A DNA stretch of 64,000 nucleotides from Lophium mytilinum (Eukaryota). Each line of letters begins with the position of its first letter. Position 1 is the first letter of the stretch. A program made the translations under genes and the position numbers. Positions 57,157 to 59,415 of the stretch are shown piece after piece. The DNA is taken from NCBI GenBank assembly GCA_010093605.1, contig MU004193.1, forward strand, positions 343,321 through 407,320, given 5' to 3'. Under the pieces are notes generated by a model, which was given only the letters and a program-made list of their open reading frames with translations, ran no database searches and had not been told where the DNA came from.

Positions 57157-59415
57157 TTCACGGCTCAGCATACCACAGTGTAAGTCTAAGAAGTTCCAGT
57201 ATGTGAAAATAGAAATCAGGTGCCAGCGACCATCTTACTCTATGGTCGTATCAGTTACAAGGAGATCATACTGCAGTGCTGCCTGGCCTGTGTCCGATAC
57301 GAATCATTCTCACCATCTGCTCACATGGTTGACCCACGATACGCGAAGCGTATGCACTGCCCCAGATTACGGCTCATCAGTTATGGACCTCCGTACCTAC
57401 GTGGTGAGTTTGAGATTTGATAATCGGGTGAGAGTAACCTGCTTTTAACGTCATTGGTCCCAAGCCGTTCCCCAGATTACGGCTCATCAGTTCTGGTGCG
57501 CCGTACCTGCGTGGTAAGTTTGAGATTTGATTATCGGGTGAGAGCAACCTGCTTTTGATGTTATTGGTCCCGAGCCGTTAGCGAGGGCATTTCTGCGTGT
57601 ACCAGGCACGCCAGGCTACGTCCATCCTCTTTCTTGGTTGGCTGAACGTATGCTAGGTGTTTTGCACTGCCCCAGATTACGGCTCATCCCCCCGCCGCTC
57701 ACTCGCGGCCTGCTGGTCGCCAACTGAGAACTGAAACTTTGTTGCGAGCATCCTACATTCGATATTACTGGTCGCCAGTTGTTCGCATTTGATCTCGTCG
57801 TTGTTCGCAAAGGCAAACTCTTACCAAGAACGGCTTGACCGGTCAGTCTGCCACCCTGTCATGTCACTGCTTCAACTCTCCTTCGCCCGGTTGCAGGAAC
57901 TGACCAGGGGCGTGCTAGGCACCAGCATGGGGGCCTCGATCTACTCCAGTCTGAATTTGTGAACTCGATGATTGGACGTGAATGTAAATCACGGCTCGTC
58001 TGAACGTTGAGGCTCTGTAAGAAAGGATCGCTCAAGAGACCTAATTTGGGAGTGGGCTGCACTCTTGCTGTGTAATTGGTTGGGAGCATAGACTCTACCG
58101 GTGAACTTTTCAGAGAATCTCGAGTCTGCCTTGCGCTCACCTACCTAGTCTTGTAATTGGACGAGGGATGTGCAACTCGTACAGCTCAGGCAAAATACGG
58201 CTTAGTAATCCGACGGCATGAAAATTCGAGGCTTCCTCGCATGCGAATAGAGAGCCAGGTGCCAAGAACCCTCACGCAGCCTGATTGGCCTTGAGCAACC
58301 CTTTGGGTCAGCCTTGAAAATCTGCCACGTCTCATAGCCGCGATCTGGACCGCTGACCACGAAGGCAGTAGAATTTGGGGTTTGTACCTTTCGGACACCC
58401 GATGAGTCCTCAAGCACCGCTCATCCCATCCCCTCTCTCATCCATTCTGAGAGCTGGAGGTTCGGATTGGGGGAGCCTTCTGTCAATGTGATGGCTGCAT
58501 TTAGTCAAATATGATGTAACTGCGAAGAGTTTTGCAGAAACCCACGATGCGAAAGCTGCCCCGGGATAAATCCGTTATTCTAAGCGCGCACAAGGGTGCG
58601 TGTCCTGATCTTATGGTTCTGTTGACTGCCCCGTGTGCCCCTTCTGGTATTACGGCCCATCTACTGCGCCACGATGACCGCTTGCCTCCGAGGTCTGGCC
58701 TTGAAACTGAAAACTGAGTTCTAGCAGCCGTCTTGCAGTCTTATTGGTGGTGAGTGGGCCTTCCTGCAATGCCGCGTGCGCCATCGCTTCATTTCTGCCA
58801 TCAAATGAGGTAAGATTACGGCTCAGCTGCGGCGGTGGGGGCGAGGTGATGGGGACTTGAAAACTGTGTGGAGGCAACTGTCTTGCAACCTGATTGGTTC
58901 AAAAGAGCCCCGGTGCGGGACGCCGTGTGGTGGTGTGTATTTTGCCAAAAGCGCAGGACGGTTTGATAGGAAAAATAAGATGGTAAACTATGTTGAAAAG
59001 TCGCATTGCAAGACAACTACGGCCTTTGAGCCTGGTATGGTGATATTTGATTGCTTCGAGTGTACTGAACGTTCTGCGAGGACAACTTGAATGGGTCCAG
59101 GCATCAATGACAAGGCTGAAGTCCGCCAGCTGAAAGCTCCAGCCAGGCACACAGGTCACGTGCCGTTCGGAGTTGGGGTGAAGAGGTTGGAAGGCTGTGA
59201 ATTTTTGGAACCTAGTTACCCCTAAATGGTCATGATAAGCCGAAAAGTATTCAGGTTTCACCCCATGATCTTATTGGATGACAATAAGATAAGTGAATTA
59301 CGGCTCAGCTAGACCAAGATGCCGCTCACCGCTACTTACTGTGGGAAAATCATGCCCCATCGATCTCGCAAATTTGAAAACTGGGCGCGAGCAGCCATCT
59401 TTCAACTCCATTGGT
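57157..59415 (+). promoter_or_regulatory. Right cluster of nine tripartite motif modules (plus orientation)
   Basis: ATTACGGCTCA-like cores at 57157, 57366, 57476, 57676, 57988, 58194, 58649, 58815 and 59297, each followed by an AACTGGG/AATCGGG-like box and an ATTGG-like box. Confidence 0.7.
57361..57580 (+). repeat. 110-bp tandem duplication of one module
   Basis: 57361-57470 and 57471-57580 are near-identical. Confidence 0.92.

Follow-up and report, generated by a model that had tools for sequence, protein, structure and literature searches.

The 64-kb window analysed here (all 64,000 nucleotides of positions 343,321 to 407,320 of contig MU004193.1, Lophium mytilinum, GenBank assembly GCA_010093605.1) contains two arrays of a short repeated unit. 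The right array (57.15–59.42 kb) consists of 9 units on the + strand, and the left array (44.10–42.17 kb) of 4 full and 1–3 partial units on the - strand. A unit comprises three segments: 1) box A, 11–14 bp long and sharply conserved (ATTACGGCTCAKC); 2) an unconstrained A–B spacer of 28–64 bp; and 3) a block of fixed length, about 50 bp, with box B (TGAAAACTGGG) at its start and an oriented CCAAT box (box C, reading ATTGGT on the unit strand) at its end. The units form one repeat family, restricted to these two clusters and unevenly conserved along its length, and carry no signal of RNA structure, transposon or coding origin. Both arrays lie between convergent genes and, 13 kb apart, are mirrored around an island of two genes; this mirrored arrangement and the position between convergent genes are the unusual aspects of the locus.

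With at most one mismatch, box A (ATTACGGCTCA) was found 9 times in the window, whereas 100 shuffles gave a mean of 1.26 (largest 4) and none of them reached 9. Six matches are on the + strand at 57366–59297 and three on the - strand at 42243–44094, all nine being confined to the two clusters (57.16–59.42 kb, +; 44.10–42.17 kb, -). When two mismatches were allowed, 9 of 10 + strand matches fell within 57157–59297 and 4 of 11 - strand matches within 42253–44094. The array of tripartite modules proposed in the sequence-only reading is thus a real, non-random and oriented family. Homology among 13 aligned units spans about 100 nt, i.e. more than the three boxes, and an nhmmer profile built from them recovers all 13 (E 8e-23 to 8.5e-5), adds one B–C block (43769–43723, E 8.8e-4) and two doubtful fragments, and has no match in the 64 kb outside the two arrays. 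In an iterative search seeded with a single B–C block, in which box A was never used, 6 blocks were found, 5 of them with a box A (at most one mismatch) 41–76 nt upstream of the match start, and box A is therefore linked to the B–C block independently of how the units were picked. The units and related segments are as follows (R, right array; L, left array).

R1, 57153–57264, + strand: degenerate unit with TTCACGGCTCA as box A, TATGG as box C and 27 bp from B to C (nhmmer E 4.7e-10).
R2, 57361–57469, + strand: box A at 57366 with TGCACTGCCCCAG directly before it, ATTGG at 57453; first copy of a 110-bp tandem pair (nhmmer E 8e-23).
R3, 57470–57579, + strand: tandem duplicate of R2 with 89% identity and a 110-bp period (profile and repeat search).
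R4, 57672–57782, + strand: ACTGG as box C, 32 bp from B to C; 26 nt around box A the same as in R2 (profile).
R5, 57984–58088, + strand: ATCACGGCTCG as box A; an additional ATTGG 17 nt upstream, at 57971 (profile).
R6, 58190–58298, + strand: AATACGGCTTA as box A, degenerate box B; an additional ATTGG at 58156 and an A-like box at 58181 (profile).
R7, 58647–58757, + strand: ATTACGGCCCA as box A (profile and box-A-free block search).
R8, 58811–58906, + strand: B–C block and a tail of about 100 nt homologous to R9, 66% over 152 nt (profile and block search).
R9, 59292–59421, + strand: the longest A–B spacer, 64 nt; an additional ATTGG 24 nt upstream, at 59273 (profile and block search).
L1, 43974–44097, - strand: box A at 44094, ATTGG at 43984 (nhmmer E 1.2e-13).
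L2, 43823–43888, - strand: short unit with ATCACGACTCA as box A and only 48 nt from A to C (nhmmer E 8.5e-5).
B–C block without a box A of its own, 43723–43769, - strand: preceded by CTGCAGCAATATGCAAGCGAGG, which recurs at 42415 (profile E 8.8e-4).
L3, 42743–42840, - strand: ATCACGGCTCA as box A, 32 bp from B to C (nhmmer E 2.1e-17).
L4, 42166–42257, - strand: box C decayed to ATTCG (nhmmer E 9.7e-14).
Larger duplicated segment of the left array, 42258–42468, - strand: 68% identical to 43634–43848, with two oriented ATTGG and the motifs TGCACTGCCCC and CTGCAGCAAC.

The spacings first reported for these units were reproduced: the distance between the starts of B and C is 31 bp at 57422, 57532, 58044, 58253, 58712, 58862, 59379, 42207 and 44015, 32 bp at 57735 and 42789 and 27 bp at 57214, and that between the starts of A and B ranges from 46 to 82 bp. 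Over the units the B-to-C distance is 30.8 +/- 1.3 bp, as against 40.7 +/- 11.5 bp for the A–B spacer. An ungapped consensus anchored on ATTGG is conserved continuously from about -38 to +12 (tGAAAAcTGGGTG.gaGCAACc.TCTTtcaaccT.ATTGGTyg.AAG), and mean pairwise identity is 0.87 in box A, 0.83–0.85 in box C (6 nt), 0.49–0.50 in box B (14 nt) and 0.44 in the filler between B and C. This 24-bp filler had been described as diverged; it is instead homologous among the units (0.437, against 0.250 +/- 0.013 and at most 0.30 in 500 sets of 24-mers drawn at random from the same regions), and the truly variable segment is the A–B spacer, which, apart from the recent pair R2/R3, aligns at the level of shuffled sequence (0.091 versus 0.089 +/- 0.049). 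Since the filler is homologous, B, filler and C together represent one ungapped block inherited without insertions or deletions. The 31-bp spacing therefore follows from common descent without such changes and not from selection on two separate boxes, and the earlier argument from fixed spacing and diverged filler to selection does not hold.

Constraint on the units is nevertheless evident from the conservation of box A against its flanks, from the length of the block and from identical patches in diverged copies. Around box A, 57353–57378 (R2) and 57663–57688 (R4) are identical at 26 of 26 positions within copies that are otherwise 64–75% identical, and R8 and R9, whose alignable parts are 66% identical, have ATTACGGCTCAGCT in common at box A (14 of 14 nt). 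The arrays also hold more degenerate boxes than were first listed, with 18 occurrences of ACGGCTCA (at most one mismatch) where the background predicts 1.7. Over the 4.4 kb of the arrays, 19 copies of ATTGG have the orientation of the units and 6 are reversed (3.3 expected per strand), three of these six belonging to an unrelated 21-bp tandem repeat. Since an ATTGG often precedes the following box A by 17–43 nt (57971 to 57988, 57453 to 57476, 59273 to 59297 and 58156 to 58194), the conserved parts can also be read as one B–C–A module split by free spacers.

The 21-bp repeat itself (43342–43496, 7.4 copies, 86% matches) reads on the - strand as EEYFDQA-like heptads in an ATG-started ORF (open reading frame) of 71 aa (43336–43551), for which Pfam matches are weak and all under the cut-offs. 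At 43262–43277 the left gene-free gap holds 16 consecutive G (C on the - strand).

The window looks like part of a filamentous ascomycete chromosome, with blocks of 25–30% G+C (1–23 kb and 48.4–52.8 kb) alternating with gene-bearing DNA of about 50% G+C. RNA evidence comes from contigs of run X1, which are taken as RNA because short GT..AG introns are spliced out of them, the label itself being a guess. The gap that contains the right array is free of genes for about 3 kb. To its left lies a + strand gene for a protein with NPHP3_N/NACHT and C-terminal C2H2 zinc-finger domains (Pfam), seen as a spliced contig at 52847–56804 with at least 7 introns, and to its right a - strand gene, the 3' end of which corresponds to a contig start at 59787. 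The gap around the left array is about 3.8 kb long, bounded on the far side by a + strand ORF ending at 40476 and on the near side by a - strand gene for an SNF2-family helicase with a RING-like motif (the SNF2/RING gene; 44315–48336, at least 8 introns, spliced in the RNA contigs). The SNF2 domain of the latter is backed by Pfam and its RING match is under the Pfam cut-off; its last exon extends to about 44315, and the array begins about 220 bp past it. Each array is oriented like the gene directly upstream. Low-word-depth pieces of X1 contigs lie within 57008–59008, compatible with weak transcription, and among the pieces listed, 41000–42333, 43001–43667, 48337–52338 and 59009–59675 have no X1 contig cover, which is no evidence of silence.

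Two further features of this neighbourhood were recorded. The - strand ORF at 60385–61569 (394 aa) contains two Cys/His repeats (CTY.PCQR.GHDE..CWYK.PHL) and a lysine/glutamate-rich tail, and has RNA contig cover and no Pfam family above the cut-off. Between the divergent SNF2/RING and NACHT genes lies a DNA transposon (48430–52850) with degradation resembling repeat-induced point mutation (RIP); it is bounded by inverted ends of 135 nt (48439–48573 and 52707–52841; 98% complementarity) that carry GTACAGT sub-repeats, its interior has 28% G+C, and the direct repeat CCTCTCACC at both ends is like a target-site duplication. The arrays are free of RIP mutation (TpA/ApT 0.65–0.71, second index 1.30–1.36), the corresponding values of this nested transposon being 1.81 and 0.10.

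R2/R3 is the sole strict tandem pair (57360–57579, 2.0 copies by TRF, period 110, 89%); the remaining units are 166–482 bp apart, and larger mosaic duplications connect 42258–42468 with 43634–43848 (68%), 57313–57378 with 57622–57688 (75%) and 58857–59008 with 59374–59518 (66%). One surviving tandem pair, mosaic duplications of 64–75% identity, decayed boxes in R1, R4, R6, L2 and L4 and the lack of any copy in the 64-kb window beyond the two clusters would all suit a neutral relic of old, local, satellite-like tandem duplication, in which the boxes were kept by patchy gene conversion and by anchoring of the alignment. We consider this unlikely. A box A that is 87% identical beside a spacer at shuffle level, and a block whose length has a standard deviation of 1.3 bp next to a spacer with one of 11.5 bp, weigh against it, as does the linkage of box A to the block in 5 of 6 cases when box A is not selected for. 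Moreover, the same boxes are found in arrays 13 kb apart and in opposite orientation, and gene conversion over such a distance is less likely.

It is also quite unlikely that the units are promoter fossils, i.e. the promoters or 5' regions left by former tandem copies of a small gene, the transcribed parts of which have decayed or been deleted. The order of ATTGG 17–43 nt before the next box A is promoter-like, R8 and R9 remain alike for about 100 nt past box C, and the gaps between the convergent genes are unusually long. However, none of the 21 ORFs from both arrays has a Pfam match, units are in places only 110–200 bp apart, which leaves no space for genes, and the sole coding-looking piece beside a unit, a 99-aa ORF next to L3 (42462–42761, - strand), has no homologue and corresponds to an insert resembling a miniature inverted-repeat transposable element (MITE). 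Its single match among 1.84 billion proteins, to a repetitive tail-fibre-like protein, was rejected as spurious. The insert, of about 230 bp (42485–42716, - strand), matches itself in reverse, has imperfect inverted ends of about 40 nt and is unrelated to the units. X1 contigs match it at 90–95% and then continue into unlike sequence, and it is therefore a multi-copy family within transcripts elsewhere in the genome; the loose-ended contigs at 42490–42710, tried as an expressed paralogue beside L3, proved to be this insert.

That the arrays are a nest of a short non-autonomous mobile element, a MITE or a short interspersed nuclear element inserted repeatedly at two places, is improbable. With about 100 nt the units are of MITE-like size, there is other mobile DNA nearby (the 230-bp element within the left array and the RIP-degraded transposon at 48.4–52.8 kb), and GGCTCAG in box A resembles the A box of tRNA genes. 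Nevertheless, terminal inverted repeats of the MITE type were not found in the 13 units, of which only 3 show head-to-tail complementarity of 6 nt or more, two of these being one recent duplicate pair; no target-site duplications were seen around the units, their interior differs between copies, and ARAGORN found no tRNA-like gene. All 13 copies are situated in two single-orientation clusters, and the other gene-rich sequence, about 31 kb, has none. Decay from a known transposable element or a coding repeat, which the sequence-only reading had named as the outcome that would overturn it, is accordingly not what was found, as the units have no inverted termini, no ORF with a Pfam match and no copy elsewhere in the window. 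A giant transposon bounded by the two arrays was rejected as well: the flanks outside the arrays hold no inverted repeat (score 10; in shuffles the mean was 10.9 and the maximum 13.5), and the two halves have only the inverted ends of the nested transposon in common. The degenerate EFT MITEs of Epichloe, as presented in the main text of PMC3227409, are likewise short, decayed, non-coding intergenic repeats in a genome with AT-rich repeat blocks, but the units here differ in lacking inverted termini, target-site duplications and dispersed copies in the window, and none of the unit motif words was found in that main text.

The sequence-only reading had further suggested short non-coding RNA or guide units, and this proposal fared poorly. 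Rfam gave no match at E up to 1 over 41000–60500, and ARAGORN found no tRNA-like gene. Folding of 10 of the 13 units (R1, R3 and L2 were left out) against dinucleotide shuffles gave z-scores of 0.07, -0.52, 0.91, -0.70, -0.14, 0.62, 0.11, -1.09, -0.70 and -0.16 on the unit strand and 0.56, 1.15, -0.88, -1.94, -1.42, 0.62, 1.55, -0.10, -0.15 and 0.80 on the other, averaging about 0 on both, so that these 10 units show no RNA-structure signal. In R2/R3, ACGGCTC in box A pairs with GAGCCGT just past box C, and R7 has a matching double change (GGCCCA with TGGGCC); this one possible compensatory pair is seen in R7 only. A closing stem or inverted termini were rejected for the 13 units, in which the longest head–tail run averages 4.6 nt as against 4.5 nt in mismatched pairs and 4.1 nt with shuffled tails. 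The variable spacers match nothing else in the window past 10–11 nt, equal to random 40-mers. Intron-like units were also rejected for lack of consistency: a GTRAGT-like word is found in 5 of 13 spacers, at differing places, and box A follows CCCCAG in 3 of 13 units. C/D small nucleolar RNA boxes and tRNA A/B boxes do not fit across units.

Short-RNA mini-genes, with the boxes as promoter or processing signals and the variable 28–64-nt segment as the RNA body, are thus very improbable. The conserved flanks around a segment free in both sequence and length, the single orientation within each array and the low-word-depth contig pieces over the right array point towards them, but the absence of Rfam families, tRNAs, folding signal, closing stem and spacer matches just described points away. 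Nematode 21U-RNA (type I piRNA) loci, which are known for an upstream motif, are similar in being clustered small units with conserved flanking motifs at a set distance and a body of free sequence; they differ in that there is no evidence of a discrete RNA product from the units here, and we know of nothing like them in fungi. There is hardly any likelihood in the more specific version in which each unit is an autonomous mini-gene, its CCAAT/B block and box A being promoter and end signals for a unit-specific short RNA, as a fungal counterpart of the nematode clustered small-RNA loci.

Tentatively, therefore, we read the units as possible protein-binding modules, duplicated locally between convergent genes. 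Binding of proteins to the DNA appears to be the best explanation because the boxes are short and invariant, the block is fixed in length, the spacers are free, the orientation is strict and RNA signals are missing; we infer from these features of the sequence that proteins bind, which CCAAT factor is involved and what regulatory effect there may be. Under this proposal, a single non-coding unit of about 100–130 bp would have spread by local duplication, giving two arrays of diverged copies. A CCAAT-binding complex (HapB/C/E) may occupy box C with a neighbouring factor on box B at a fixed distance, and a separate sequence-specific factor may bind box A at a flexible distance. On this view the arrays would be clusters of repeated, uniformly oriented cis-acting modules in unusually long gene-free gaps, where they might have weak promoter or enhancer activity, form a roadblock for transcription leaving the upstream genes, or serve as a chromatin boundary. 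The NACHT/C2H2 zinc-finger protein encoded next to the right array is a candidate for a putative binder of the neighbouring boxes. Box A was compared with sites of Reb1, Abf1, Ste12 and zinc-cluster proteins, and none of them fits.

A composite site for a CCAAT-binding complex and partners had been one candidate of the sequence-only reading, and in enrichment and orientation box C behaves like a site of this complex. The fungal CCAAT-binding-complex consensus is CCAATVR, the bipartite element for the complex with HapX is CSAATN12RWT, and the complex covers 13 nt, according to PMC7144946. The arrays hold 21 CCAAT boxes on the strand opposite the units, about six-fold enriched and oriented one way, and 13 of the 21 fit CCAATVR, compared with 17 of 47 elsewhere in the gene-rich part of the window (p = 0.015). 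The start of box B lies 24 nt past the CCAAT pentamer, just outside the 13 nt that the complex covers. The sites are similar to those of the complex (CBC, or NF-Y) in having an oriented CCAAT pentamer, flanks tending modestly to CCAATVR and a partner, box B, at a fixed distance on the side that the complex covers.

Several observations weigh against protein-binding modules of this kind: i) the HapX signature (RWT after 12 nt) is present at 1 of 21 sites, which is the chance level (0.0625 expected per site); ii) the remaining 8 of the 21 array sites do not fit CCAATVR, so that the enrichment in fit is modest; iii) on both sides the arrays lie past the 3' ends of the flanking genes, as judged from spliced RNA contigs, with no obvious promoter to serve, and the 13-unit profile matches none of the promoter regions in the window; iv) the A-to-C distance varies from 48 to 113 bp without helical phasing, and box A therefore cannot join a rigid complex with B and C; v) the identical patches in diverged copies could stem from recent gene conversion instead of selection; vi) a metagenome scan with a strict A–B–C pattern gave 6 loci, in 5 of which box A is the sole part matched by the profile (best E 0.0095) while the sixth has no match, so that they are chance matches; and vii) the evidence comes from one genome and a 64-kb window.

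Known systems resemble the proposed modules in part. The ERSE, or endoplasmic reticulum stress response element, is CCAAT-N9-CCACG; in CBC:HapX sites and in the ERSE the partner is 9–12 nt from the pentamer, whereas here it is 24 nt away. CBC:HapX sites further differ in carrying the RWT signature, and CBC sites in occurring one or two per promoter, unlike these arrays of about a dozen sites past gene 3' ends. Tandem promoter or enhancer monomers form the 5' monomer arrays of mouse L1 and the promoters and enhancer repeats of the ribosomal DNA intergenic spacer. These too are head-to-tail regulatory modules of 100–200 bp, in one orientation and generated by local duplication, but here no retrotransposon body or rRNA gene follows the arrays, and the copies are old and mosaic, with one intact tandem pair. 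B-box arrays flanking a domain are comparable in that two arrays of about 2 kb, consisting of short putative protein-binding boxes in opposite orientation, enclose a domain of about 13 kb, some of it repeat-degraded DNA. The B-box consensus has the core GGTTCGA, which is missing from the bases after ATTGG; the present arrays carry CCAAT and box A instead of B boxes, do not represent copies of a single long inverted repeat, and enclose genes that are expressed.

Among titles and the opening parts of abstracts, no paper treats the box A word, in either orientation, as a fungal motif; within these limits the units are an undescribed and probably lineage-specific family of non-coding repeats whose general type is familiar. 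Without binding to the boxes, the arrays would be a decayed lineage-specific repeat to be masked in annotation. With binding, they would form a cis-acting element unusual in a filamentous fungus, namely about a dozen CCAAT modules in one orientation together with a partner box, past gene 3' ends and mirrored around the two genes, and the locus would be a place to test the CCAAT-binding complex outside promoters, as a boundary or a transcription roadblock, with box A as bait for its factor.

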